This document shows, piece by piece, positions 1,431 through 18,119 of a DNA stretch of 64,000 bases. The translations under genes were made by a program, and so were the position numbers. Every line of letters begins with the position of its first letter. Within the stretch, counting starts at the first letter, position 1. Origin of the DNA: a candidate division FCPU426 bacterium (lineage in GTDB: Bacteria > Oederibacteriota > Muellerivitia > Muellerivitales > Muellerivitaceae); contig CAVYSE010000007.1 in assembly GCA_963771075.1 (NCBI GenBank), positions 96,001-160,000 on the forward strand, read 5' to 3'. Under the pieces are notes generated by a model. It worked only from the letters and a program-made list of their open reading frames with translations. It did not search any database and was not told where the DNA came from.

Positions 1431-1507
<77 letters not shown>

Positions 1508-1522
1508 TATTTTTCAACGGTT

Positions 1523-2638
1523 TTACAACTTCACTTCTTGGCCGGCACCCGTCCGTGTCATATCCGTGTCAAACTGCCTCTCAACCTGTAGTAGTGCGTT
1601 CACCCGGTCCTTCCGGTCGATCCGGTTATACCGTTTGAACATGGCGTAGGTCTTATGGCCCGATATGGACATGATGACCGAGTCGCTTACCCCCGCCTTT
1701 CTTAGATTCGTCACCGCGCAATGCCTGAGATCGTGGAACTTAAAATTTCCGATCCCCACCATGCGGCACGCCCTCAAAAAGGCGGACTTGACGCTTTGCA
1801 TGCGCTTTCCCCTATGGGTGAAGACATAAGGGCTTCCAAGGGTCTTAGGGGTCCGTTTCAGGAGGTCTAACAAGCTCTCCGTCAAAGGGACTTCCCGTTT
1901 CTCCTGGGTCTTGGTGTCCGCGGCTTCCAGATTGATGACTTTGTTTTGAAAGTCCACCTGTTCCCACCGCAAACTCAAAATTTCCCCCTTCCTCATACCC
2001 GTCCAATAAGCCAATTGGACTATGGCACTCAGTCGGGGCGCGCAATAACCCAAGAGCGCCTCGTATTCTTCCGGCGTCAAGGTGCGGTCGCGGGATTCTT
2101 CCCGGAAGGGCCGTACCCTTTGGATCGGGTTTTTCTCAATCAAATCATTGAGGACCGCCCGATTCACGATAGCCTTGAGAGTCCCAAGGTCCCGGTTCAG
2201 TGTAGCGTTGGATAACGCCTTTCCGTTACGGCCTTGATTTAAGGCTTGGTTTCCGGCCTTCTTCCGTTGGGTTAAAAAGCCTTCCACAATGTCCGGCGTT
2301 AAGCTTCTCAAGGGTCTGTCACCGAAATAAGCCCTGAGCCGCTCGACCATCTGGATATCGTTCTGGTGGCTTTTCCTTCTTGCCTCGGAATAAGCCAGGA
2401 ACGAATCCGCCGCTTCGTTGAAGGTGACTTCCGGCTTTTCCACGGCCAAGAACTTTCCCGCCACCATTTCTTGCATGTGTTGGGCCAGTATCTTTTTGGC
2501 TTGGGCAACCGGTATTACACCCAATCGAACCCGCTTGCGCTTCTTCAATCCTCCCTCATCGATAAAGTAATCCAGGAAATACCCCTTTTCGTCCTTACGG
2601 AGAAATTGGGGCAATCCATGAACATTAGGTCTACTCAT
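1523..2638 (-). CDS. int: Tyrosine recombinase/integrase
   Basis: TGMRKGE, FHDLRH, ISGHKT...KRY catalytic residues; adjacent to attL. Confidence 0.96.
   Translation of the reverse strand: MSRPNVHGLPQFLRKDEKGYFLDYFIDEGGLKKRKRVRLGVIPVAQAKKILAQHMQEMVAGKFLAVEKPEVTFNEAADSFLAYSEARRKSHQNDIQMVERLRAYFGDRPLRSLTPDIVEGFLTQRKKAGNQALNQGRNGKALSNATLNRDLGTLKAIVNRAVLNDLIEKNPIQRVRPFREESRDRTLTPEEYEALLGYCAPRLSAIVQLAYWTGMRKGEILSLRWEQVDFQNKVINLEAADTKTQEKREVPLTESLLDLLKRTPKTLGSPYVFTHRGKRMQSVKSAFLRACRMVGIGNFKFHDLRHCAVTNLRKAGVSDSVIMSISGHKTYAMFKRYNRIDRKDRVNALLQVERQFDTDMTRTGAGQEVKL
1553..1575 (+). repeat. Putative integrase arm-type site CCGTGTCATAT(C/A)CGTGTCAAACT
   Basis: Tandem GTGTCA; recurs at 8036-8058, 12152-12174, 17620-17638 and 17738-17760. 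Confidence 0.7.
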
Positions 2639-2889
2639 GCGTCCCTCCTAATGTCCCCAGCACTTGGCATTTTATAATCAGAGTCCGCCCAAGATGGAAG
2701 GGGTTTTTTAAAAACTTGAAGAAACACCGAATACCAAACCCTCGGATACTTACCAACCTTCACAAAGGGAAGGGCACCGGTCTGCCGCCAATAGCGGACG
2801 GTATTGGGGGAAACACCGGCTTTTTCGGCAATGTCTTTGTCCGACATTAAAAAATTCCGCCGTTCGACATTTTTCCTACGATCTACCAT
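2635..2889 (-). CDS. Excisionase-like HTH DNA-binding protein (MerR/HTH_17-like)
   Basis: SDKDIAEKAGVSPNTVRYWRQTGALPFVKVG; 4-nt overlap with the int start; GGGAGG RBS. Confidence 0.8.
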   Translation of the reverse strand: MVDRRKNVERRNFLMSDKDIAEKAGVSPNTVRYWRQTGALPFVKVGKYPRVWYSVFLQVFKKPLPSWADSDYKMPSAGDIRRDA

Positions 2890-2914
2890 GGCCTACCTCC
2901 CTTTTTAAAAATTT

Positions 2915-2954
2915 TAAATAAACGACCCTCCAAAGAATTCTCTTTGGAGGGTCG
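2915..2954 (-). terminator. Perfect 14-bp inverted repeat with T-rich tail on the minus strand, just upstream of xis
   Basis: CGACCCTCCAAAGA-ATTC-TCTTTGGAGGGTCG (2923-2954). Confidence 0.55.
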
Positions 2955-3200
2955 AAAATTGGGTTGTGAAGCGTTCAAGGTTTGGGGGATTCTCCGGGCT
3001 GATTGACTTGGAATTTTGTTTTCGGTTGTCGAAGCGGAACAACTTGCGAGGGCGAAATCTTCGGGGCAGTAATCGCCCTTTAAATGCAAAATCTGAAATT
3101 CGTTTTTGGGGGTCATCCGTCACCGCCGTATTTTGTGATATTTATTTTGACTGTCTTAAGCGCCTAAACGTTTCATCAAAAAGAAATAATTATTTTGAAA

Positions 3201-3305
3201 TGTCACTGACCGTCACTTACTGCCGCTAACTGCCACTTGTGATCGGCAGTGATCTTTTGTGAGCATTCTCCGTGACCATCGTTAACCATGGATTGCCATG
3301 GATTG
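3201..3305. repeat. Two 10-bp-period direct-repeat arrays upstream of the Replic_Relax gene
   Basis: tgtcactgac/cgtcacttac/tgccgctaac/tgccacttgt and cgtgaccatc/gttaaccatg/gattgccatg; conserved in E2 at 13871-13975. Confidence 0.7.
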
Positions 3306-3398
3306 GACGCAATAGATTTTTATGACACTTAAAATTTTTGGGAGCGAAAGGAGAAATGAATCGTCCAAAAGGCATGAAAACAATTTCTGGAGGGAGCT

Positions 3399-4202
3399 AT
3401 GGGCCACTACCTGGAAATCAACGATACCGAAGCCCAGCACCTCGCCTGGATTCACTCCAACAAGTTCACCATCCCAGAGCTTTTCCAAAAGAAGTTTTAT
3501 CCCCAAGGCACCTATCGAAATACCTGTTACGTCCTCAGCAAATACGTCAAAAAAGGGTTCCTGCTTTTTGAAAAGGAAAATATGTTCGCGCATAACTTTT
3601 ATTTCCTGACCCTTCCGGCCATCCGCACCCTGGACGAGACAGGGCGGATGATCGTCATGGGCCGGAAGCACACCATCCGAATCAACCCCTATGAGCGACA
3701 GCATGACCTTATGGTCCAGGAGTTAAGAATCACCTTGGAGGCCACCCCCACCCTGGAAGACATCTTTTGGGTGAGTGACTTCGAAATGCGGGCAGGTATC
3801 ACCCCGCGAACAAAGGCCGAGTTCCTCAATGGGGAGCTGGAAAGAAACTGGCGGGTTAGGGCCTACGAAAGGGCAAAGTCCTTGGTCCGTAGGACGCCGG
3901 ACGGATACTTTGAAGCCGACTTCCAGGGGGAGAGACGGGCCTTTGTCCTGGAATTCGAGCGGACGGCCTATAACTGGAACATGGTCAAACGGATGGTCTA
4001 TAACTTGGACGACGCCTTTCCCAACGCCTGGCGGCTTGTTGTCTCGGAAACCTACCCCCATGCCTGGCGGATGATCCGCAACCTCCAAGCCTGGGTCATG
4101 GAAAGGGATCGGTCCAAGTGGTTGGTAAGCGACTTCGGCAGGGTAACGACCCGCCCATTCGAGAAAGTCTGGTTCCAGATCAGCAATCCTCTGCCGGAAT
4201 AA
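3399..4202 (+). CDS. Replication-relaxation (Replic_Relax, PF13814-like) protein: N-terminal wHTH plus PD-(D/E)xK-type domain
   Basis: Motifs QHDLMVQELR, RTPDGYF, FVLEFERT; GGAG RBS; same-length paralog in E2. Confidence 0.72.
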   Translation: MGHYLEINDTEAQHLAWIHSNKFTIPELFQKKFYPQGTYRNTCYVLSKYVKKGFLLFEKENMFAHNFYFLTLPAIRTLDETGRMIVMGRKHTIRINPYERQHDLMVQELRITLEATPTLEDIFWVSDFEMRAGITPRTKAEFLNGELERNWRVRAYERAKSLVRRTPDGYFEADFQGERRAFVLEFERTAYNWNMVKRMVYNLDDAFPNAWRLVVSETYPHAWRMIRNLQAWVMERDRSKWLVSDFGRVTTRPFEKVWFQISNPLPE

Positions 4203-4210
4203 CACCCCGT

Positions 4211-4381
4211 TGGCCGTGGAAAAAATGTCCTACGGTCTTTCATTCGGACGGAACTACAAATTTTAATCTTTCGGCTTTTTTAGGGGTGTTTTCCCATGCT
4301 CCGATGGCGAGCCCCCCTATCTCTGCATCAAGTACGGATGCGAGAAACGATAGGGGGGCTCGCCCTCTCCGCATGGGAAAA
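4211..4381 (+). other. Conserved non-coding structured module (three-stem hairpin 4289-4381); candidate origin/nick site or ncRNA
   Basis: 11-bp, 16-bp and 5-bp stems; compensatory changes versus 14966-15058 and 13402-13528(-); 4211-4287 identical to E2. Confidence 0.8.
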
Positions 4382-4708
4382 CCAGGAGACGTTATTTTTA
4401 AAAACAAGGATGAGACAAATTCAAATTAAAATCAGATTCAAGAGCAAGGCAAGGCAAACCGGAGCAGTATCCAGAGGTGGCAGGTTGGGATTGGAGTGGT
4501 GGGTGCAGGTTAGCGTGGTAGGTGGGTAAGACAAAGGCAGGGTAAGGGAAGTGGTAGTTTGGGATAGTTGGTAGGTTGTTGGTTATAGCTGTTTTAAACA
4601 GGGGTTAATCCTTCCTGATAACGTGGTTTTGGTTTTAAGGGGTGTTAATCTTAGGAACGACAAATTATGGTTCTTGTGGGTATAATGGTTTTCTAAAGGG
4701 GCAACAAT

Positions 4709-5032
4709 ATGCAGGGAACAGATTCAAAATTGACTGAAATCGTGAACCGCTTGGCGGAGGCTTATCACCCCGAGCGGATTTATCTTTTCGGTTCCACGGC
4801 TAGGGGCGACCAAGGCCCGGACAGCGATTTTGATTTAATGGTCGTAGTCCCTGATAACGCCCCGTCCCCCCTGCGCCGAAGCCGTTTGGCCTATGAGAGG
4901 CTTTGGGGTACGGGAACTGCGGCAGATGTTTTGGTTTGGACCCATACCGCCTTTGAAAGCCGGAAGGCCGTAATAGCCTCTTTACCCGCCACGATTCTCC
5001 GGGAAGGCCGTCTGCTTTATGGGGCCGCTTGA
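4709..5032 (+). CDS. Minimal nucleotidyltransferase (MNT), antitoxin-like
   Basis: IYLFGSTARGD...DSDFDLMVV (GS-x10-DxD); TATAAT at 4681-4686. Confidence 0.92.
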   Translation: MQGTDSKLTEIVNRLAEAYHPERIYLFGSTARGDQGPDSDFDLMVVVPDNAPSPLRRSRLAYERLWGTGTAADVLVWTHTAFESRKAVIASLPATILREGRLLYGAA

Positions 5033-5438
5033 AGCAGACCGCGCCGCTGAAACCAGGGCTTGGCTACATAAAGCCGCCCAAGACTTAAGGGGCGCTGAAA
5101 TTGACCGCCAAGCTGACCCTCCCTTTTTGGAAGACGTTTTGTTTCACTCCCAACAATCAGCCGAAAAATCTTTGAAGGCGTTCTTGTGCTGGCATGACCA
5201 ACCTTTCCGCAAAACCCATAACTTAGTTGAACTAGGAGAGCCTTGCGCCAAAGTGGACAGCACATTGGAACCCATCCTCCGAAAAGCCGCCGTCTTAACC
5301 GAATATGCTTGGAAATTTCGATATCCGGGAGACGTTGAAGTAATTGAAACGAAAGAAGCTGATGAGGCAATGGGTTTGGCCCGCCAGGTATTCGATGCGG
5401 TAAAGTTGCGGCTTCCGAAAGAAAGCCATCCAACATGA
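5019..5438 (+). CDS. HEPN domain protein (PF05168/COG2250 type)
   Basis: FHSQQSAEKSLKAFL, KTHNL, FRYPG; overlaps the MNT gene. Confidence 0.9.
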   Translation: MGPLEADRAAETRAWLHKAAQDLRGAEIDRQADPPFLEDVLFHSQQSAEKSLKAFLCWHDQPFRKTHNLVELGEPCAKVDSTLEPILRKAAVLTEYAWKFRYPGDVEVIETKEADEAMGLARQVFDAVKLRLPKESHPT

Positions 5439-5492
5439 GGATCGAAGTCGTCCTTTTTTGATGGAAGGTTCAGCTCAAACGGGGTGGATTTG

Positions 5493-5699
5493 TCACTCGA
5501 AAAAATTTTTTATGTCGATTTCAAAATGGTTGGCAAGTTTTTCAAGAAGGCGAACGGTGGGGTTTAACTTACCGGCTAAAAGACGGGATATTGTGGATTT
5601 CGCTACCTCTGCACCAAAGGCGACCTGCTCAGCGGTTTCTCCGCGTTTTTTGAGTGTCTTTTTTATGTTTTCAACGACCCGTTCCGAAGCACTTTTCAT
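5493..5699 (-). CDS. XRE/Cro-type HTH transcriptional regulator
   Basis: TAEQVAFGAEVAKSTISRLLAGKLNPTVRLLEKLANHF. Confidence 0.85.
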   Translation of the reverse strand: MKSASERVVENIKKTLKKRGETAEQVAFGAEVAKSTISRLLAGKLNPTVRLLEKLANHFEIDIKNFFE

Positions 5700-5763
5700 G
5701 CCCAGAGAATATATTTTTAAGTTATACTGCTAGTTGCTTATAGGAAACCTAAGAGGTGGGTCT

Positions 5764-6324
5764 ATGAAAAAACACTTGTGGCTTACGGGATTAACCTTTT
5801 CAGCGATTTTCGTTGTTTTTTTATCCTGTAATAAAATTACCACTCCGTTAGCACCTGGCTCCGGAACAAGCGCCAATAGCAGTAGCTTCATTTTGGCTTG
5901 TGGGTCAACTTTGCCTACATCAGCAAACAGTTGTTCGATAACTTTAACTTGTGGCACGGCTGTTGATTTGAGTTCCATTTTATCCGCAAATAGCACGAAT
6001 ATTTATGCTTGCGTCAACCCTTCCGGACTTCCAAAAAGCTTTAATAGTTCAAATGTTTATACGGGGTCAGCATACTGTTCAGCGCCAACAACCACATGTG
6101 CGGGACCGTCGGGATGCTCTGGCTCTTTAAATTCTTCAAACATAACCATAAATTGTGGGGACAATTTACCTTGTTCCGCAAACTCAGCTGTAATCACCAT
6201 AGCTTGTCCCACAATTACCGATTTAAGTTCGATTTCGTCGGTAAATAGCACAACCATTTACATGCACAATGCCCCTTGCAAGTTGCCTCAGAGCTTTAGC
6301 AGTAGCCATATTGTTTTGTATTAA
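5764..6324 (+). CDS. Ser/Thr/Cys-rich lipoprotein with an internally duplicated ~60-aa domain
   Basis: MKKH plus hydrophobic stretch plus FLSC lipobox; GAGG RBS; repeat CG..LP.SANS..IT..C....DLSSI.S.NST.IY. Confidence 0.75.
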   Translation: MKKHLWLTGLTFSAIFVVFLSCNKITTPLAPGSGTSANSSSFILACGSTLPTSANSCSITLTCGTAVDLSSILSANSTNIYACVNPSGLPKSFNSSNVYTGSAYCSAPTTTCAGPSGCSGSLNSSNITINCGDNLPCSANSAVITIACPTITDLSSISSVNSTTIYMHNAPCKLPQSFSSSHIVLY

Positions 6325-6353
6325 TTTGGCAGATAAGCATTCAGAGGTAAATC

Positions 6354-7229
6354 ATGAAGCCTGCATTGTTTTTGGTAATTTTGGTAGTAATGGTCGTAGT
6401 TCCTGCCTTGTCGTTGGCCCAAACACCTACACCTTCTGCACCTCAATACATAGCTGATGGAAACAAATATTACGCAATAAAAGATTATTCAAAGGCTTTG
6501 TTGTATTACCAAGCGGCCACCCAGTCGGACCCAGGAAGTGCCGTGGCTTTTCAGGGACTCGGAAACGCCAATTATATGTTGGGTCAAAAGACAACAGCTC
6601 TCGCTGCCTATGAAAAAGCGATGGCTTTAGATCCCACGAATGCTCAATTGAGCAATTTCGTTCAAACGCTAAAAACTCAAAATAATGAATCTTCAAAAGT
6701 TGTTACGGCTACCCCTACCCCATCAGTCCTTCAATTTTCAAGAATTGAAATAGATTTGATGGGTGGGATTGATGAGCCAGTAAACCCAGATGGATATGCG
6801 CTAAGCTTTGGAGGGGGAGGCACATTTTACCTTTCGTTGAATCGTGCCACGGCTATTGGCATTTCTCTTTCTTTGTATTCTTTTTCATATCAAGCCTCTA
6901 GCGCCACCAGTACTGTGAATGGTATTACCACCTCTTCTCAAAGCGGGGGAGGATCGGCTACCGAGTTTGAAGGATTGGCGGTTTTCAAGTTTCGGCTGAG
7001 TACTGGAAATTTTGAACCGTACATATTGGTTGGTGCCGGATTATCAGATTACAATGATACCGTTGATGGATCGGTGCTAAATCCCGCAATTAGTGGCGGG
7101 CTTGGTTGCGAATTTAGTTTGGGGTCCGGGACAAATCTTTTTTTAGAAGGCAAAACCAACGCGATAATTGCTTCGAATACGACTATTATCCACATACCGA
7201 TGGAAGCAGGCATCAACTTTGATCTTTAA
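6354..7229 (+). CDS. Secreted TPR protein with C-terminal outer-membrane beta-barrel
   Basis: Signal peptide, TPR helices, TATPTP linker, alternating beta-strands (EPYILVGAG, LFLEGK, AGINFDL). Confidence 0.75.
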   Translation: MKPALFLVILVVMVVVPALSLAQTPTPSAPQYIADGNKYYAIKDYSKALLYYQAATQSDPGSAVAFQGLGNANYMLGQKTTALAAYEKAMALDPTNAQLSNFVQTLKTQNNESSKVVTATPTPSVLQFSRIEIDLMGGIDEPVNPDGYALSFGGGGTFYLSLNRATAIGISLSLYSFSYQASSATSTVNGITTSSQSGGGSATEFEGLAVFKFRLSTGNFEPYILVGAGLSDYNDTVDGSVLNPAISGGLGCEFSLGSGTNLFLEGKTNAIIASNTTIIHIPMEAGINFDL

Positions 7230-7364
7230 TTCCAAGCTCTTTCTGGAAAAAGCAGAAAAAAGAGGCGAGAAACGTAAGATCATTCAGGGAAGCTACGGGA
7301 AGAAATGCCAAATATTAAAAATCTTATGACGGTAAGTTTAAGAAAGTGATAAAGGAGAATTCTC

Positions 7365-7961
7365 ATGCGGCCAAGAACCCCTGTTATTTTATTATTGTTT
7401 GCGACATTGTTAAGTTTAACCTTAGCTGGTTGCAAAGATGCGGAAGTGGCCCCAATGGTTCTTCCGCAATTCAACCAATACTTCCCAGCTACAACGTTGT
7501 TTCAGGTTGATAAACGATTTCTTTGGGTACAAACCAACATAGACGGAATTAGCGCGGCGGCGGCGGAGTTGATGTTTAAGCAGGATTGCGGCCAGGCCTT
7601 GCCAGCGATACAACAAAAATCATTCGGGCTGATTAAAAATTTATCCACGGCCTTATCTATCGCCGGTAAACAGGTTTTAATTGTTGGATTTAAAAACTAT
7701 TGGGTTGTTTGGGTTGTCCGCAATGGGATTGACACCCAGGGGCTTCCTTACAACTACCAGGTCTTGAATTACCAGCAGTTCAGTAGTTGGCTTATCCAGG
7801 TTATGGGCGCTGTTCCTACACCGGACCAGATCAAGGTCGTTACTTTGGAAAACGTCCAAGCTACCCCCAAAGGCCAGCCTGTAATAGCCCCCACCTTGGC
7901 CCAGGTTCGCCAACAGGTGGCCCAACAACCCCAAGTTAACAACCCGACCTTTGCGGAATAA
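7365..7961 (+). CDS. Hypothetical lipoprotein
   Basis: LAGC lipobox; AAGGAG RBS. Confidence 0.75.
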   Translation: MRPRTPVILLLFATLLSLTLAGCKDAEVAPMVLPQFNQYFPATTLFQVDKRFLWVQTNIDGISAAAAELMFKQDCGQALPAIQQKSFGLIKNLSTALSIAGKQVLIVGFKNYWVVWVVRNGIDTQGLPYNYQVLNYQQFSSWLIQVMGAVPTPDQIKVVTLENVQATPKGQPVIAPTLAQVRQQVAQQPQVNNPTFAE

Positions 7962-8112
7962 AAATTAAATCCTTGGGTGAGCTTTTAAACGTCAGCGTGC
8001 CAATGAAGTCGGTCGGGATGTTTTCATGGGTTTCGCCGTGTCATATACGTGTCAAACTCGACCGTCAAAATCGAGTTTTGACCGTCGCCAAGTGTCCTTG
8101 ACCGTCACCAAC

Positions 8113-8161
8113 AAAAAAAGCCTCTGCCTGCTTGGGTTGTGAAACCCTTGCAGGCAAAGGC
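8113..8161 (-). terminator. Hairpin plus T-tract (minus strand) inside the attR arm; related copy at 17814-17863
   Basis: AAAAAAA-GCCTCTGCCTGC...GCAGGCAAAGGC. Confidence 0.5.
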
Positions 8162-8222
8162 CTTAAAAATCTGCTGGGGACTTTAAAATTTTAAAAATGT
8201 TCCAACTGTGTTGTCGAATGAA

Positions 8223-8267
8223 CTTCTAAGCAGTAGGTCCCGCGTTCGAATCGCGGCAGGCGCACCA
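8223..8267 (+). repeat. attR of E1: displaced 3' half of tRNA-Arg(TCT)
   Basis: Identity starts at the anticodon loop (CTTCTAAGCAGT) and ends CAGGCGCACCA; T-arm differs by compensatory changes. Confidence 0.92.
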
Positions 8268-8419
8268 TATTTTACTAAATCCCAGGGGCGAAGGATTACA
8301 AACGTTGTTTTGGAAAACGTCTGAAAAGTTTTCGTGAAAAAGGGCTTTTTTATCTGAGATTTTTGATGGGCTAGAGTTCTGCTAAGTTTTCTCTTCCTTT
8401 ATGAATCGTCAAATTAATC

Positions 8420-12029: not shown

Positions 12030-12106
12030 GGGCGAATAGCTCAGTTGGTTAGAGCACCTGCTTTACACGCAGGGGGTCACAGGTTCGAATCCTGTTTCGC
12101 CCACCA
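12030..12106 (+). tRNA. tRNA-Val(TAC); attL of element E2
   Basis: CCTGC-TTTACAC-GCAGG; CCA. Confidence 0.96.
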
Positions 12107-12121
12107 TATTTTTCAACGGTT

Positions 12122-13225
12122 TTACGACTTCACTTCCTGGCCGGCAAGGATCCGTGTCATATCCGTGTCAAACTGCCTCTCAACCTGTTGTAGCGCGTTC
12201 ACCCGGTCCTGCCGGTCGATCCGGTTGTACCGTCTGAACATCGCATAGGTCTTGTGGCCCGATATGGACATGATGACCGAGTCGTTCACCCCCGCCTTCC
12301 GCAAGTTGGTCACCGCGCAATGCCGGAGATCGTGGAACCGGAAGTTCTTGATCCCCGCCTTACGGACCGCTTTCCTGAAGCCGGTCTTGATGTTCTTGAT
12401 GCGCTGGCCCTTGTAGGTGAAGACATAGGGGCTTCCCAGGTTCCGGGGTGTCCGTTTCAGGAGTTTCAAAAGCCCCTCCGTCAATGGCACCTCCCGCTTC
12501 TCCTGGGTCTTGGTGTCCGCGGCTTCCAGGGTGACGACCTTGTTTTGGAAGTCCACCTGTTCCCACCGCAGGCCCAAAATCTCCCCCCGCCGCATTCCCG
12601 TCCAATAAGCCAGCTGGACGATTGCGGAAAGGCGCGGGGAACAAAACCCCAAGAGGCTTTGGAATTCCTCAAGCGTCAAGGTGCGGTCCCGTGATTCTTC
12701 CCGGAAGGCCCGAACCTTTTGAATCGGGTTTTTCTCCAACAAGCCGTTGAAGACAGCCCGGCTCATGATGCTTTTGATTACTCCAAGGTCCCGGTTCAAG
12801 GTGCAGTTGGAAAGGGGTTTTCCCCCAAAGGCAACATTGCCCGCTTTCCGCCTTTGGGTCAAATAACCCTCAACAATGTCCGGCGTTAAACTTTTCAAGG
12901 GCCTGTTACCAAAGTAACCCTTGAGCCGCTTAACCATCTGGATATCGTTCTCGTGGCTTTTCCTTCTTGCCTCGGAATAAACCAGGAACAAATCCGCCGC
13001 TTCGGTGAAGGTGACTTCCGGCTTGTCCTCGGCCAGGAACTTTTCAGCCACGATTTCCCTCGTGTGCTGGGCTAAGACCTGCTTTGCCTGGGTCAAAGGA
13101 ATGAACCCCAACCGCACTCTTTTGCGCTTTCTTATACCTCCTTCCCGGATGAAGTAATCCAGAAAATACCCCTTATCGTCCTTGCGGAGAAATTGGGGCA
13201 ATCCATGAACATTAGGTCTACTCAT
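12122..13225 (-). CDS. int: Tyrosine recombinase/integrase, close paralog of the E1 integrase
   Basis: TGMRRGE, FHDLRH, ISGHKT...RRY. Confidence 0.96.
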   Translation of the reverse strand: MSRPNVHGLPQFLRKDDKGYFLDYFIREGGIRKRKRVRLGFIPLTQAKQVLAQHTREIVAEKFLAEDKPEVTFTEAADLFLVYSEARRKSHENDIQMVKRLKGYFGNRPLKSLTPDIVEGYLTQRRKAGNVAFGGKPLSNCTLNRDLGVIKSIMSRAVFNGLLEKNPIQKVRAFREESRDRTLTLEEFQSLLGFCSPRLSAIVQLAYWTGMRRGEILGLRWEQVDFQNKVVTLEAADTKTQEKREVPLTEGLLKLLKRTPRNLGSPYVFTYKGQRIKNIKTGFRKAVRKAGIKNFRFHDLRHCAVTNLRKAGVNDSVIMSISGHKTYAMFRRYNRIDRQDRVNALQQVERQFDTDMTRILAGQEVKS

Positions 13226-13401
13226 GCGTCCCTCCTAATGTCCCCAGCACAAACATATTACCAGGGGCCAAGATTTTTTCAAAAGAAGTACCCAGCACAA
13301 CCGCCGAAAACGCGAAAAGTTCAATAACGCCTTCAAAGTGTTGGAAGCATGGGTTTGGGTTGTTTGATTTGGGTTTGAAGTTAGAAGTGGCTTTAATTAG
13401 T

Positions 13402-13528
13402 GCCGCAATATGGGCGGCCAAGCGAACCAAGAGGCCAGACCCCACTACCGTTTTCCTGGATAGGAACTTGATCCAGGGGGAGTGGGGTCTGGCGTCGCAG
13501 GTGAGAAAACAGCCGCCCATATTGCGGC
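13402..13528 (-). other. Diverged third copy of the three-stem hairpin motif
   Basis: Perfect stems of 17 bp (13402-13418/13512-13528), 13 bp (13434-13446/13481-13493) and 7 bp (13455-13461/13471-13477); ATCAAGT apex on the minus strand. Confidence 0.8.
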
Positions 13529-14074
13529 TATTTCCTGAAAAAAGATGTGAGTCAGAGTCACGTTCCGCTTTAAGCAGGTTTAAGTTCCGGCTCAAGCGAG
13601 TCGTGCCTCTCTTTTGGTGGATCGTTAAATTGAGTTGTGAAGCGTTCAAGGTTTGGGGGATTCTCCGGGTTGATTGACTTGGATTTGAAAGTTCACTTGT
13701 CGAAGGGTAACAACTTGCGAGGACGAAATCTTCGGGGAAGTAATCGCCCTTTAAATGCAAAATCTGAAATCTAAAAAGTTCGTTCATCCGTCACCGCCGT
13801 GTTTTGTGATATTTATTTTGACTCTCTTGAGCGCCTAAACGTTTCTTTGAACGGAATAATTTTTTTGAATTGTCACTGACTGCCACTTACCGCCGCTAAC
13901 TGCCACTTGTGATCGGTAGTGATCGTTTATGCGCATTCTCCGTAACCATCGTTAACCATGGATTACCATGGATTGACGCAATAGATTTTTATGACACTCA
14001 AAATTTTTGGGAGCGAAAGGAGAAATGAACCGTCCAAAAGGCATGAAGACAATCTCCCTGCAAGGATGCGGTCC

Positions 14075-14878
14075 ATGAGCCAATACCTTGAAATCAGCGA
14101 TACCGAAGCTCAGCACCTCGCCTGGATTCACTCAAACAAGTTCACCATCCCCGAGTTATTCCAAAAAAAGTTTTATCCCCAAGGCACCTACCGAAACGCT
14201 TGTTACGTTCTCAGCAAATACGTCAAAAAAGGTTTTCTGCTTTTCGACAAGCCCCACATGTTCGCGCATAACTTTTACTTCCTGACCATTCAAGCCATTC
14301 GCACCATGGACGAGACAGGGCAGATGATTGTCATGGGCCGAAAACACCCCATCCGAATCAACCCCTACGAGCGACAGCATGACCTTATGGTTCAGGAGCT
14401 AAGAATCACCTTGGAGGCCTGCCCTAGCTTGGTGGATATCTTTTGGGTCAGTGACTTCGAAATGCGGGCTGGTATCACCCCGCGAACCAAGGCCGAATTC
14501 CTTAATGGGGAGTTAGAAAGCAACTGGCGGGTGAGGGCCTATGAAAGGGCTAAGTCCTTGGTCCGAAGGACGCCGGACGGGTACTTTGAAGCCGACTTCC
14601 AGGGGGATAGGCGGGCATTTGTCCTGGAATTCGAGCGGACGGCCTACCACTGGAACATGGTCAAGCGGATGGTCTATAACCTGGACGATGCCTTTCCCCA
14701 TGCCTTGCGGCTTGTCGTCTCGGAAACCGTGCCCCATTCCAGGCGGATGATCCGCTACCTGCAAGCCTGGGTCCGGGAGAAAGACCTTTCTTGGTGGTTC
14801 GTGAGTGACTTTCAGAAGCTGACGACCCAGCCTTTCGAAGACTGCTGGTATCAAATCAACCATCCCTTGGAGCAATAG
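14075..14878 (+). CDS. Replication-relaxation (Replic_Relax-like) protein, paralog of 3399-4202
   Basis: Start chosen by alignment to E1 (267 aa each); same motifs. Confidence 0.72.
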   Translation: MSQYLEISDTEAQHLAWIHSNKFTIPELFQKKFYPQGTYRNACYVLSKYVKKGFLLFDKPHMFAHNFYFLTIQAIRTMDETGQMIVMGRKHPIRINPYERQHDLMVQELRITLEACPSLVDIFWVSDFEMRAGITPRTKAEFLNGELESNWRVRAYERAKSLVRRTPDGYFEADFQGDRRAFVLEFERTAYHWNMVKRMVYNLDDAFPHALRLVVSETVPHSRRMIRYLQAWVREKDLSWWFVSDFQKLTTQPFEDCWYQINHPLEQ

Positions 14879-14887
14879 GGGGTTTCC

Positions 14888-15058
14888 TGGCCGTGGAAAA
14901 AATGTCCTACGGTCTTTCATTCGGACGGAACTACAAATTTTAATCTTTCGGCTTTTTTAGGGGTATTTTCCCGTGTTCCGATGGCGAGCCCCCCTATCTC
15001 TGCATCAAGTACGGATGCAAGAAACGATAGGGGGGCTCGCCCTCTCCACACGGGAAAA
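14888..15058 (+). other. Conserved non-coding structured module (hairpin 14966-15058)
   Basis: TTTTCCCGTGT/ACACGGGAAAA and GGCGAGCCCCCCTATC/GATAGGGGGGCTCGCC stems. Confidence 0.8.
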
Positions 15059-15252
15059 CCAGAGGCGTTATTTTTAAAAAAAAGGATGATACAAATTCAA
15101 ATTAAAATCAGATTCAAGAACAAGACAAAGCAAACCGGAGCAGTATTCAGAGGGGGTAGGTTGGAATGGAAGTGGTAGTGCAGTTTTGGGTGGTAGGTGG
15201 TGAAGGGGGTTGGTGTATAATCAGGGGCAGGTGAATTCTTGAAAGTGAAAAA

Positions 15253-15585
15253 ATGATTCAACTCAAAGATCGTTCAACAACAGAAGAACTTCAGGAAGTG
15301 GTTGAGAGGGTTATCGGCAGGTTTCATCCCGATAGAATCCTCCTCTATGGTTCTTTTGCTTATGGTGATCCCCGCCCGGACAGTGACTTTGATTTATTGG
15401 TGGTCTTGCCCGACCCTCCCGCCCGGCAGGTTGGATGGGAAGCGGCTCATGAAATACGCCTCAAACATCCCCTTCAATTGGTTTTCATGAAGACTGAAGT
15501 GTTCGAGGAAACCAAAGACGTTGTCGGGGGCCTTGCCTATCCCGCCAATCATTGGGGAAAAGTGCTCCATGAAAAGGCTTCGTGA
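15253..15585 (+). CDS. Minimal nucleotidyltransferase (MNT)
   Basis: ILLYGSFAYGDPRPDSDFDLLVV; TATAAT at 15216-15221. Confidence 0.9.
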   Translation: MIQLKDRSTTEELQEVVERVIGRFHPDRILLYGSFAYGDPRPDSDFDLLVVLPDPPARQVGWEAAHEIRLKHPLQLVFMKTEVFEETKDVVGGLAYPANHWGKVLHEKAS

Positions 15586-15997
15586 ACAGGTCATTTGGGA
15601 CTTTATTCAAGGCTGGCTTAAAAAAGCCGAGAGCGACCTAATCGCCGCCGAGATAACTCTAAATACAAAATCAGAAGACCATTTCATCTCCGCTTTCCAC
15701 TCCCAGCAAGCCGTTGAAAAATACCTAAAGGCTTTTCTCATTTGGCGACAGGTGCCCTATCTCAAAACCCATGAGATCAAAAAATTATTGTCTCTTTTCC
15801 CGGCGGAAGACGCGGAGCTGGTAAAGGGATTGTCTGAAGCTGATTGGTTGACGCCCTTTGGGGTTGAATTTCGTTATCCAGGCGATGAAGTTGCCGACCT
15901 GGAAACGGCAAAGAAAGCCGTGGACCAGGCAAAAAAAGTTCAGAAAATCTTCTTTGGATGCCTAAAAGATTATCTCGAAAAGGGACGACCTGGTTAG
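15569..15997 (+). CDS. HEPN domain protein (PF05168/COG2250 type)
   Basis: FHSQQAVEKYLKAFL, KTHEI, FRYPG. Confidence 0.9.
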   Translation: MKRLREQVIWDFIQGWLKKAESDLIAAEITLNTKSEDHFISAFHSQQAVEKYLKAFLIWRQVPYLKTHEIKKLLSLFPAEDAELVKGLSEADWLTPFGVEFRYPGDEVADLETAKKAVDQAKKVQKIFFGCLKDYLEKGRPG

Positions 15998-16004
15998 GGG
16001 AAAT

Positions 16005-16667
16005 TTGTTGCCTACTCAAAAATGTTACACGGAAAAAGAGCTTATAAAAGAGTTGAAAAAATTTAAGCCTAAATGGAAAAAATGGTTTAACTTTCACCGA
16101 TTGTGGGAACAGGATAGTGAAATAGAAAAGTTTATCCGCCATGCCGTTGACGGGAGTACATTCAGAGCTTTTCGCGGAGTTAAAAACCCAGCAATAAAAT
16201 TTAGAATTTGGGCGAAAAAGTATTTGACCGACAAGCGTTTAGAAGAACTTCGTAAAATAAAAAGTCAAACCGAATATTCTGAATGGCTAAACGATATGAG
16301 AAAACACTTGCAAGGCCATTGGAAAGCCAAAAAGAAAATGGATTACGGCCATGCCATGAAACTCTCAAACCTATTGGTAAAGCAACTTTGTTGTTCAAAA
16401 AGGGAAATACCGCAAAAAACGTTCAATGAAATAATCGAGTTCATCGAGGTGCCGCTTGATAAATATTCTCTTCAAGCCATAGCCAATTGTAAAAAATATT
16501 TGCCGGAAGACGTCAAGATTAAAGGAACTGATGCGATGGGTTATATAAAAAACGATAAGAAAAAGTACAAAAAAATTCAGGATGGTATTCGAATGCTTAT
16601 CAATGAAAATAAAGTAAAAGTGCCTCCAATTGCTTTCGATTTATTCGTTTGGAACCATGCCCATTAA
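16005..16667 (+). CDS. Basic hypothetical protein, possibly helix-hairpin-helix glycosylase-like fold
   Basis: YGHAMKLSNLLVKQL...EVPLDKYSL...Y..IQ..IR...PIAFDLFVW; AT-rich. Confidence 0.6.
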   Translation: MLPTQKCYTEKELIKELKKFKPKWKKWFNFHRLWEQDSEIEKFIRHAVDGSTFRAFRGVKNPAIKFRIWAKKYLTDKRLEELRKIKSQTEYSEWLNDMRKHLQGHWKAKKKMDYGHAMKLSNLLVKQLCCSKREIPQKTFNEIIEFIEVPLDKYSLQAIANCKKYLPEDVKIKGTDAMGYIKNDKKKYKKIQDGIRMLINENKVKVPPIAFDLFVWNHAH

Positions 16668-16706
16668 GGTCCAATAAAGAACATTATGAAAAGAAACGGA
16701 GGAAAA

Positions 16707-17603
16707 ATGAATAAAGTATTATTTGTATTATTGGCACTTGGACTAAGTGGCCCATTGATGGCAAATGACAAAATTGTGGTACAGATTAATAACGATATAT
16801 CCATGGAGAACTATAAAAAAGACCTCTACTTAGCGATGCATTTTTACAAATTGAAAAATTTTAAGGAAGTTTTAAAAGAACTTAAGAAATTTGAAAAGGA
16901 TACGGCTGTTGAAAATCCTTCGCCAAGTGGACAAGCGACTTATTCATACATCCTTTATCGAGTAACGATGTACCAAGCCCAAATGGCACAAAAACAAGGG
17001 AATAAAATTTTGTATTTGGAGTGTAAGGATAAAGCTAGAGATCTATTAGACAGGATTCAAAATATTAGTGATGTGAATGACGAAAGGGTTAATCAAGCAC
17101 TTGGACCTGGGCACGGCGGAGCTATCCTAGTTGCGATAGATGAAATAAAACCTTATTTTGATTGTTACGATAGTAACGAAAGAAATTGTGATGATTACTT
17201 TGTTCAACCGATTGCTACTCCAACCCCTGAAATGATACCCGTGACTGTATCCGTCGAGTTGTCGCCAAAAGCCACTCCGGTAATAAATATGGGTTATTAT
17301 GAATATAAAAATCCCCCGGGTTTGCAAGTAACGATGAATTGGAACCCGATTCTTGAAAGCACAAATGCCGCAACTACGGTAATTTATCTTCCTAAGGGAA
17401 GCGGAAAGCGTTTTCAGATTGAGGAAGAATTTCCTAAAGATGAAAATGCATCATTTACCCTAGTGATTTCTCAACCTGGATCAGAATCCGTAACAAGTCA
17501 TGGAGTTGATTGTAGTGCTGGTCTTGGTTGTCGCCGGGCAATGATAGACGTTAGAGCGGGAGAAAATATTTCAAATATGTTAAGTGAATCCAGCGGAAAT
17601 TAA
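16707..17603 (+). CDS. Hypothetical secreted protein (helical N-domain, ATPTP linker, beta-rich C-domain)
   Basis: GGAGG RBS; signal peptide MNKVLFVLLALGLSGPLMA; AT-rich. Confidence 0.7.
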   Translation: MNKVLFVLLALGLSGPLMANDKIVVQINNDISMENYKKDLYLAMHFYKLKNFKEVLKELKKFEKDTAVENPSPSGQATYSYILYRVTMYQAQMAQKQGNKILYLECKDKARDLLDRIQNISDVNDERVNQALGPGHGGAILVAIDEIKPYFDCYDSNERNCDDYFVQPIATPTPEMIPVTVSVELSPKATPVINMGYYEYKNPPGLQVTMNWNPILESTNAATTVIYLPKGSGKRFQIEEEFPKDENASFTLVISQPGSESVTSHGVDCSAGLGCRRAMIDVRAGENISNMLSESSGN

Positions 17604-17935
17604 ACTGTAGGATCAATCGGTGTCATATACGTGTCAAATTTGGACTCACTGAATGAATTGCAGGCAGTCTTTTTTACGACCCCCTCCATGAAATGCAGGG
17701 GCTTACAAGGCACAGGCGGTAAAAATTAGTCGTTCTGCCGTGTCATATACGTGTCAAACTTAACCATGCTTTACGATGCTTGACCATCACTTACCGCCGT
17801 TTACCGCCACTTCAAAAAAAGAGCCCTTGCCGCTCAGGTCGTAAAACCGTTGCAGGCAAAGGCCCTTGAAACTGTGCTGGGGACTGTGAATTTTTAAACT
17901 CGCTCTAAAAGAGCGTCCAAATATGGTTTCGGTGA

Positions 17936-17980
17936 TTTACACGCAGGGGGTCACAGGTTCGAATCCTGTTTCGCCCACCA
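17936..17980 (+). repeat. attR of E2: 3' half of tRNA-Val(TAC)
   Basis: 45 bp identical to 12062-12106. Confidence 0.95.
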
Positions 17981-18119
17981 TTTTTGATAATGATTAGACA
18001 TTTTTTTCTTACAAAAATATAACCGCTCGCCGACAACTGTTTGCCAGGACTTACTTGTATTTTTGGGCTTTTTGGTTAAAATTCTCTCCCTGTTAAAAAG
18101 AGTCGTTGGTTTTTGAATT

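Follow-up and report, generated by a model that had tools for sequence, protein, structure and literature searches.

A 64,000-nucleotide stretch from a candidate division FCPU426 bacterium (GenBank assembly GCA_963771075.1, contig CAVYSE010000007.1, positions 96,001 to 160,000 of the forward strand), hereafter the window, carries three copies of a long nested hairpin, two of them close behind genes for a 267-residue protein. What does such a hairpin do for the DNA that carries it? The window contains two islands, each integrated at a tRNA gene, with GC contents of 47.5% (island 1) and 46.0% (island 2), against 54.7% in the remainder. Both have a tyrosine integrase, a repeat array with a spacing of ~10 bp, the 267-residue open reading frame (ORF), the hairpin, a C-poor tract, an MNT-HEPN gene pair and further cargo (Table 1). 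An earlier note, made from the letters of the window alone, had proposed a selected DNA structure, an origin or nick site rather than an RNA. Our analysis supports this proposal and sharpens it: we consider it likely that the hairpins are MOBC-type origins of transfer (oriTs) of small tRNA-integrated islands, at which nicking is predicted, and the element probably works like a MOBC oriT and descends from one.

Structure, conservation and linkage of the hairpin

The hairpin is built from an outer stem, an internal loop of CGA(T/C) opposite CTCT, a 16-bp middle stem, and a spacer of 27–29 nt that contains a small hairpin. Copies 1 and 2, the two longest inverted repeats of the window, have an outer stem of 11–12 bp, a perfect middle stem (arms at 4306–4321 and 4349–4364 in copy 1), a 27-nt spacer and a short apical stem. 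The three-stem build described in the earlier note was thus borne out, and the two compensatory pairs that it had reported in the outer stem are present in the sequence. So are the six further pairs claimed between copies 1 and 3, at core positions 2, 4, 5, 6, 11 and 15; copy 3 adds a C·T mismatch at position 14 and has an outer stem of its own of 17 bp (13402–13418/13512–13528). The heptamer ATCAAGT, previously taken for an invariant apex, did not hold up. In copies 1 and 2 its ATC sits in the apical stem (GCATC/GATGC), leaving AAGTACG as the loop, and the heptamer is present in only 28 of 64 distinct family members (anchored hairpins drawn from 87 model matches). The only near-constant part of the apex is [AG]TCA at spacer positions 5–7, found in 56 of the 64. 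Folding z-scores of the three copies ranged from −8.0 to −10.9, as DNA or RNA and on either strand, and were equalled by none of 200 shuffles.

When 41 copies were aligned, the covariation persisted. The core helix was 98.1% paired, with 12 of its 18 pairs changing on both sides and none on one side only, and the covariation score was reached by 0 of 500 shuffles, slid controls being far lower. The outer and apical helices were paired at 61% and 57%, respectively, lower partly because of register shifts. In the 16-bp core of the 64 distinct hairpins, 988 of 1024 cells were Watson–Crick pairs, 6 were G–T and 30 were mismatched, counts that are inflated by related sequences. This pairing pattern favours DNA over RNA. 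An Rfam search, which the earlier note had listed as a check, gave no match at the gathering score; the best hit, a generic miRNA hairpin, scored 23 bits against a cut-off of 100.

A genome-wide search detected seven hairpin sites in 4.39 Mb, all in mobile elements, with nothing else above noise. Six lie downstream of a relaxase-like gene in their own element, and the seventh is copy 3 in island 2; this is not the genome-wide repeat, independent of such genes, that the earlier note had named as speaking against its proposal. Across the phylum, the hairpin model matched 22 of the 27 other genomes of the same family and 1 of 65 outside it. The single match outside the family is in genome G095 (E 3.9e-7).

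Linkage was analyzed in 32 genomes of the class, which were searched with the hairpin model, a profile of the relaxase-like protein and PF12696 for the coupling protein. Merging brought the 84 gene rows to 77 loci. The 140 listed hairpin rows (32 weaker ones went unlisted) came down to 92 sites once only the better strand was counted, and the 66 coupling-protein rows to 63 after removal of one below the cut-off and two within VirB4 frames. A VirD4-like coupling-protein match lies directly upstream at 58 of the 77 gene loci and, conversely, the relaxase-like gene lies within 3.5 kb downstream of 58 of the 63 coupling-protein matches. On this count, the MOBC-like gene appears to provide the principal conjugative nicking system in an uncultured family. 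A same-strand hairpin is found downstream of 55 of the 77 genes, within 400 nt in 42 cases and at 4.6–46 kb in 13, and within 10 kb upstream of none. In both window islands the core starts 104–105 nt past the stop codon of the 267-residue ORF. Wherever a fetched locus has both a hairpin and an ArdC or RadC-like gene (13 loci), the gene follows on the 3′ side, read on the hairpin's strand. This polarity fits a leading region, defined in the available part of bioRxiv 2026.01.13.699239 as the oriT side away from the relaxase.

The genome that holds the window (G000; contigs are numbered C, and fetched loci or islands L) has six loci of the relaxase-like gene and seven hairpins. On contigs C2, C12 and C27 the gene is directly behind a VirD4/TraD-type coupling protein. 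The two window islands have the composition of integrative mobilisable elements (IMEs), with an integrase, tRNA attachment (att) repeats and a relaxase-like gene but no mating-pore genes; neither has a coupling-protein gene. VirB4-like ATPases are encoded on C3, together with a VirB6 match, and on C8, in neither case with a coupling-protein match. Complete elements with pore genes, coupling protein, relaxase-like gene and hairpin exist in other genomes (G009:C14 and G025:C12), and no known relaxase family was matched among 25 of their ORFs.

The hairpins fall into sequence types that cluster on the protein tree: GGCGA.. stems belong to the window's clade and a middle clade, GCCAG.. stems to clade 2 and CCCGA.. 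stems to a basal clade. The tree required 15 changes of stem type, compared with 44.2 after shuffling (0 of 200 as low). Copies 1 and 2 (type A) match the stem type of their own relaxase clade.

The candidate relaxase and known MOBC origins

The gene adjoining the hairpin encodes a divergent PF13814/MOBC-like protein. The earlier note had called the neighbours Replic_Relax genes. The window proteins themselves match neither Pfam PF13814 nor NCBIfam MobC; the kinship is seen in homologues, with PF13814 matching 7 of 65 aligned sequences at E ≤ 0.1, and PF13814/MobC matching 10 of 28 chosen distant representatives at E ≤ 0.01 (four above the cut-off). The protein has the winged helix and restriction-endonuclease-like fold of MOBC relaxases as well as the DEE metal-binding triad, with D168 and E185 conserved in 65 of the 65 homologues and E187 in 64. 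The DEE motif, and the role of Y181 in the MOBC relaxase TraX, are treated in the available part of PMC6736028.

The element had not been recognized as a described family, but it shares its architecture and, in basal members, the nick sequence with known MOBC oriTs, and it has the large nested inverted repeat of CloDF13 and pTEF1. CloDF13, with coupling protein MobB and relaxase MobC, has an outer stem, an internal loop, a middle stem and a structured spacer, and its nick site (nic), GGGTG/GTCGGG in the available part of PMC5935869, is in the 3′ arm of the middle stem, 9–11 nt from the spacer. The same arm reads G/GTCGGG in the most divergent members of our family, which come from ParA- or pore-bearing elements, and MAFFT aligns this word with the CloDF13 nic. 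In four of five basal hairpins tested, the longest word in common with the CloDF13 origin begins one base before nic; one such word is 11 nt long (equalled in 6 of 300 shuffles), one is 10 nt (in none of 300), and the other two are 7 nt each, which is not significant. The order of coupling-protein and relaxase genes is also shared, as is the position of the mobilization genes 5′ of nic on the nic strand. Here, however, the operon points toward a hairpin that follows it, the window copies have diverged from the nic word, and the elements are integrated islands instead of a plasmid. The candidate relaxases were not linked directly by sequence to the CloDF13 proteins.

The second comparison is pTEF1 (NC_004669), presumably a pAD1-type plasmid of Enterococcus faecalis, whose repeat we take to be oriT2. 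It has an 18-bp outer stem, a perfect 25-bp stem and a 27-nt spacer with a mini-hairpin, resembling the hairpins of the window, a TG/GTC-like word in the arm, and a relaxase, TraX, with a D...ExE triad. It differs in that the repeat is between the coupling-protein and replication-relaxation genes and is adjoined by five direct repeats spaced by 12 bp.

Other systems share parts of this picture. In ICEKp1 and ICEEc1, oriT-only islands such as GIE492 and the iOriT hitchers, a MOBC origin is common to complete integrative conjugative elements (ICEs) and to partial and relaxase-less tRNA islands, with ardC nearby; their sequence and phylum are different, their origins lie between the pore genes and the relaxase, and the available parts of these sources describe no back-to-back pairs of two types (PMC4891358, bioRxiv 2026.01.13.699239). 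Staphylococcal oriT mimics of the pWBG749 and pSK41 families likewise widen the choice of helper through several oriT variants per element, but those are plasmids with unrelated relaxases, where specificity comes from the accessory SmpO rather than, as apparently here, from the relaxase clade (PMC4993578, available part). The streptococcal IME_Class_8 (Rel_PF13814/MobC plus VirD4) is similar to our clade-2 elements, being compact, with a coupling protein, a PF13814 relaxase, an excisionase and an integrase; its integrase is of the serine rather than the tyrosine type, and the window islands lack the coupling protein (PMC5357655, available part). A literature search, which did not extend to the original CloDF13, pAD1 and TraX papers or preprint supplements, found no description of this hairpin family.

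Several observations weigh against a MOBC oriT. In the available parts of two preprints (bioRxiv 2024.01.30.577996, 2026.01.13.699239), and in the pTEF1 and CloDF13 maps, the oriT is upstream of the coupling-protein or relaxase genes, whereas the hairpins here are downstream of the relaxase gene. No direct-repeat array adjoins copies 1 and 2, unlike pTEF1; the 10-bp-spaced arrays are ~1 kb upstream of these copies and ~340 nt from copy 3. The three window copies share only 6–7 nt with the CloDF13 or pTEF1 oriT, as shuffles do, and the C27 hairpin likewise shares only 6–7 nt with the CloDF13 origin; the predicted nic of the window copies would read G/GCTCG or G/GTCTG, compared with the MOBC word G/GTC(G/A)GG. 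The motif that we take to follow ExE in TraX, K-x3-R-Y (K176/R180/Y181 in pTEF1), with the essential Y181, is not conserved in the homologue alignment, where Y/N/R stand at the K, K/M at the R and I/V/F at the Y. The A1 profile matched pTEF1 TraX with a probability of only 0.6%, and Foldseek found no match at E ≤ 0.001. No listed same-strand hairpin was found within 50 kb of 22 of the 77 gene loci, some of which may be explained by contig ends, the 32 unlisted rows or divergent types, and 37 of the 92 hairpins could not be assigned to any gene as its downstream partner. The agreement between stem type and relaxase clade is only suggestive, being based on a quick tree of 78 proteins (28 rows without a hairpin in the fetched DNA) on which kin share labels. 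Finally, in L033 and L034 one hairpin arm has been copied onto the other. Such arm-to-arm conversion can yield compensatory changes without selection, and because part of the covariation may stem from it, covariation is weaker proof of selection here than in an RNA.

Four other explanations were weighed. The least unlikely of them, though still improbable, is a signal that acts in single-stranded DNA following transfer or rolling-circle replication, such as sso/ssi priming or an Frpo-like single-stranded DNA promoter for ArdC/RadC and cargo, with the true nick elsewhere. The fixed polarity upstream of ArdC/RadC-like genes, the long, purely Watson–Crick DNA stem and the distance of sometimes tens of kilobases from the relaxase would fit such a signal. 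No sigma-70-like site was found inside the hairpin, however, the nic word of CloDF13 is at the homologous position in basal members, and a site for host primase or RNA polymerase would have no need of a stem that tracks the relaxase clade. We consider a structured RNA controlling expression, either as the 3′ untranslated region of the relaxase operon or as the leader of a xis-int operon, somewhat less likely still. Although the hairpin always has the same strand as the genes of the operon upstream, folds as RNA at −65 to −81 kcal/mol and, in copy 3, falls within a 189-codon frame that reaches the integrase start and has 17 database homologues, its core has almost no G–U pairs (6 of 1024) and no pair that varies on one side only. 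Its distance from the gene ranges from 0.1 to 46 kb, it also occurs on relaxase-less islands, Rfam gave no match, and its build is that of two DNA oriTs.

Less probable again is that the hairpin serves vegetative rolling-circle replication of the excised circle, in which case the Replic_Relax-like protein would be its initiator and not a conjugative relaxase. The window islands have the gene and no coupling protein, the Pfam family name spans replication and relaxation, and the tyrosine motif of TraX is missing; yet the gene is tied to coupling-protein matches in the counts given above, and complete conjugative elements carry it at the place expected for a relaxase. Replication and transfer from one site are not mutually exclusive. 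Least probable, and very unlikely in our estimate, is a selfish palindromic repeat of the REP/MITE kind (repetitive extragenic palindromes and miniature inverted-repeat transposable elements), kept symmetrical by gene conversion and without function for the island. The perfected arms of L033 and L034 do show conversion, and the hairpins without an upstream relaxase gene would be expected, but the many scattered copies of REPs and MITEs are not seen here, distance and polarity to one gene are fixed, and copy-3-type hairpins are nearly invariant amid diverging flanks in five islands.

Predicted transfer and islands with two hairpins

If the hairpins are MOBC-type oriTs, the integrase would excise the island as a circle, and the winged-helix/nuclease protein would bind the extruded or single-stranded inverted repeat and nick the G-run in the 3′ arm of the middle stem. 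From the alignment with the CloDF13 nic we infer the nick positions given in Table 1, on the strand that has the conserved [AG]TCA 5′ of the apex. With a palindromic middle stem, the choice of strand must depend on asymmetric features, namely [AG]TCA and the internal loop. Transfer into the recipient would begin with the DNA 3′ of the nick, bringing in the G/T-rich tract, predicted to be the start of the leading region, and the cargo, including the ArdC and RadC-like genes of larger relatives; the relaxase gene would enter last. The window islands would borrow coupling proteins from the islands on C2, C12 and C27, and the mating pore from those with the VirB4-like clusters on C3 and C8.

The earlier note had placed all three copies next to relaxase genes, which holds for copies 1 and 2. 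Copy 3 lies on the other strand, ~460–590 nt upstream of the neighbouring relaxase-like gene, and belongs to the clade-2 type (type B); the gene of that clade is carried by C27 rather than by island 2. Integrase, type-B hairpin, conserved spacer and opposite-pointing type-A hairpin follow one another in the same way in four further islands, spread over three other genomes (L093 twice, L094 and L095); in L105 the two types share one orientation. Over 708 nt, island 2 and L095 are 92.5% identical. None of these five related islands gave a significant relaxase-profile match. Most simply, they are read as hitchhiking islands that have two origins; for MOBC origins of the ICEKp1 type, islands with an origin alone are described in the available parts of the sources cited above. 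Stem sequence appears to set relaxase specificity, and copy 3, matching the second clade, would give island 2 two mobilization routes.

Frames of ~190–230 codons that run through the type-B hairpin and end over the integrase start are seen in several two-hairpin islands besides island 2 (L095 6611–7180, L094 6003–6575, L093 5403–5984, L105 5294–5989). The copy-3 frame is open in four of the five related islands, its database homologues go down to 43% identity, and island 1 has its first 55 codons as well, ahead of xis. The frame may serve translational coupling as an unconstrained leader; the presence of this frame leaves room for an RNA-level role of copy 3.

More tentatively, and with rather less than even confidence, we suggest that one bacterial family runs a modular conjugation network missed by standard typing. 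Pores, coupling protein with tyrosine-less MOBC-like relaxase, relaxase-only and origin-only islands would be on separate tRNA-integrated elements, at least three stem codes would set relaxase specificity, and a recurring island type with two back-to-back codes could be mobilized by either clade in opposite directions. If so, the matched gene–hairpin pairs would be a natural specificity series for MOBC recognition and for processing without the TraX tyrosine. MOBC relaxases are poorly understood: according to the available part of PMC6736028, a covalent intermediate has not been found for CloDF13 MobC, whereas TraX requires Y181. The present family offers dozens of natural relaxase–hairpin pairs of three sequence types with a predicted nick site, and a candidate protein without the tyrosine motif, making recognition and chemistry directly testable. 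Compared with known MOBC origins, what differs is the downstream position, the cargo of up to 46 kb between gene and hairpin, the diverged nic word, stem types that appear to track relaxase clades, and the absence of the TraX motif. The system was missed by Pfam on the window proteins and by oriT searches confined to the region upstream of relaxases, and the islands with two predicted origins illustrate, in compact form, how an element may hitchhike on several helpers.

Further features of the islands and their relatives

Table 1. Features of the two islands in window coordinates; hairpin, relaxase and nick assignments are predictions.
Feature	Position	Strand	Remarks
Island 1	1431 to 8273		tRNA-Arg(TCT) to end of repeat of tRNA 3′ part
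tRNA-Arg(TCT)	1431..1513	+	left att of island 1
Tyrosine integrase, island 1	1523..2638	−	PF00589
MerR/HTH_17 excisionase-like gene, island 1	2635..2889	−	absent from island 2, where copy 3 occupies its place
Direct-repeat array, ~10-bp spacing, island 1	3197..3310	+	upstream of relaxase gene
Candidate relaxase, MOBC/Replic_Relax-like, island 1	3399..4202	+	267 aa; winged helix + nuclease-like domain; D168-E185-x-E187
Hairpin copy 1, type A	4289..4381	+	core GGCGAGCCCCCCTATC; candidate oriT of island 1; predicted nick 4357/4358
A-rich, then G/T-rich C-poor tract	4382..4600	+	3′ of copy 1; 7 C in 120 nt at 4481–4600
MNT-HEPN gene pair	4709..5438	+	first cargo past copy 1
tRNA-Arg 3′-part repeat	8220..8273	+	right att of island 1; 17 nt exact at 8257–8273
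Island 2	12030 to 17981		tRNA-Val(TAC) to 46-nt exact repeat
tRNA-Val(TAC)	12030..12107	+	left att of island 2
Tyrosine integrase, island 2	12122..13225	−	PF00589
189-codon open frame through copy 3	13218..13787	−	ends over integrase start; no coding-type substitution pattern
Hairpin copy 3, type B	13402..13528	−	core GCCAGACCCCACT; candidate second oriT; predicted nick 13441/13440
Direct-repeat array, ~10-bp spacing, island 2	13867–13980		upstream of relaxase gene
Candidate relaxase, island 2	14075..14878	+	85% identical to that of island 1; frame also open from ATG 13991
Hairpin copy 2, type A	14966..15058	+	candidate oriT of island 2; predicted nick 15034/15035
Second MNT-HEPN pair	15253–15997		past copy 2
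Further direct-repeat array	17781–17812		near right att
tRNA-Val 3′-part repeat	17936..17981	+	right att of island 2; 46 nt exact

The direct-repeat arrays are possibly binding sites for an excisionase or regulator. A 23-nt repeat found near both ends of both islands (1553–1575, 8036–8058, 12152–12174, 17618–17640 and 17738–17760) likely represents arm-type sites of the integrase. The spacer between the integrase side and the repeats contains a nearly invariant motif, CCTTTAAATGCAAAA, at 3084–3100 and 13747–13763, which is retained in all five aligned two-hairpin islands. A strongly C-poor, G/T-rich tract occurs 3′ of type-A hairpins (window 4440–4640, G000:C2:5700–6183 and G000:C18:218405–218760), with the bias kept but not the sequence.

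The pore clusters of the window's genome (G000:C3:383213–398567 and G000:C8:60000–80835; L030, L112, L113 and L114) contain VirB4-like genes, TPR-GGDEF genes and lipoprotein-like ORFs, and no coupling-protein or relaxase-family match was found near either. The C3 cluster has an integrase 71% identical to that of island 1, and the C8 cluster has ArdC, DUF2958 and a serine recombinase. Elsewhere in this genome, a truncated relaxase remnant is found with an intact hairpin at a tRNA-Glu gene (G000:C18:218022–218409, L028), and a frameshifted relaxase is behind an intact coupling protein, with the hairpin 8.5 kb downstream (G000:C2:14777–15575, L026). In the complete element L117, an RNase H gene (12732–13553) is between the coupling-protein and relaxase genes.

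Assembly gaps (NN) lie exactly at the apex of long perfect hairpins in L120 (G028:C49) and L122 (G028:C47), so assemblies may often lose such sites. One island, L096, has two type-A hairpins in direct orientation 1.65 kb apart (G025:C10:64531 and 66187). A second conserved hairpin, with a 12-bp stem and GTGGAAAACCCC arms, is found ~130–190 nt downstream of type-B hairpins, before xis, in the clade-2 elements L027 (4736–4797), L021, L022, L023 and L024.
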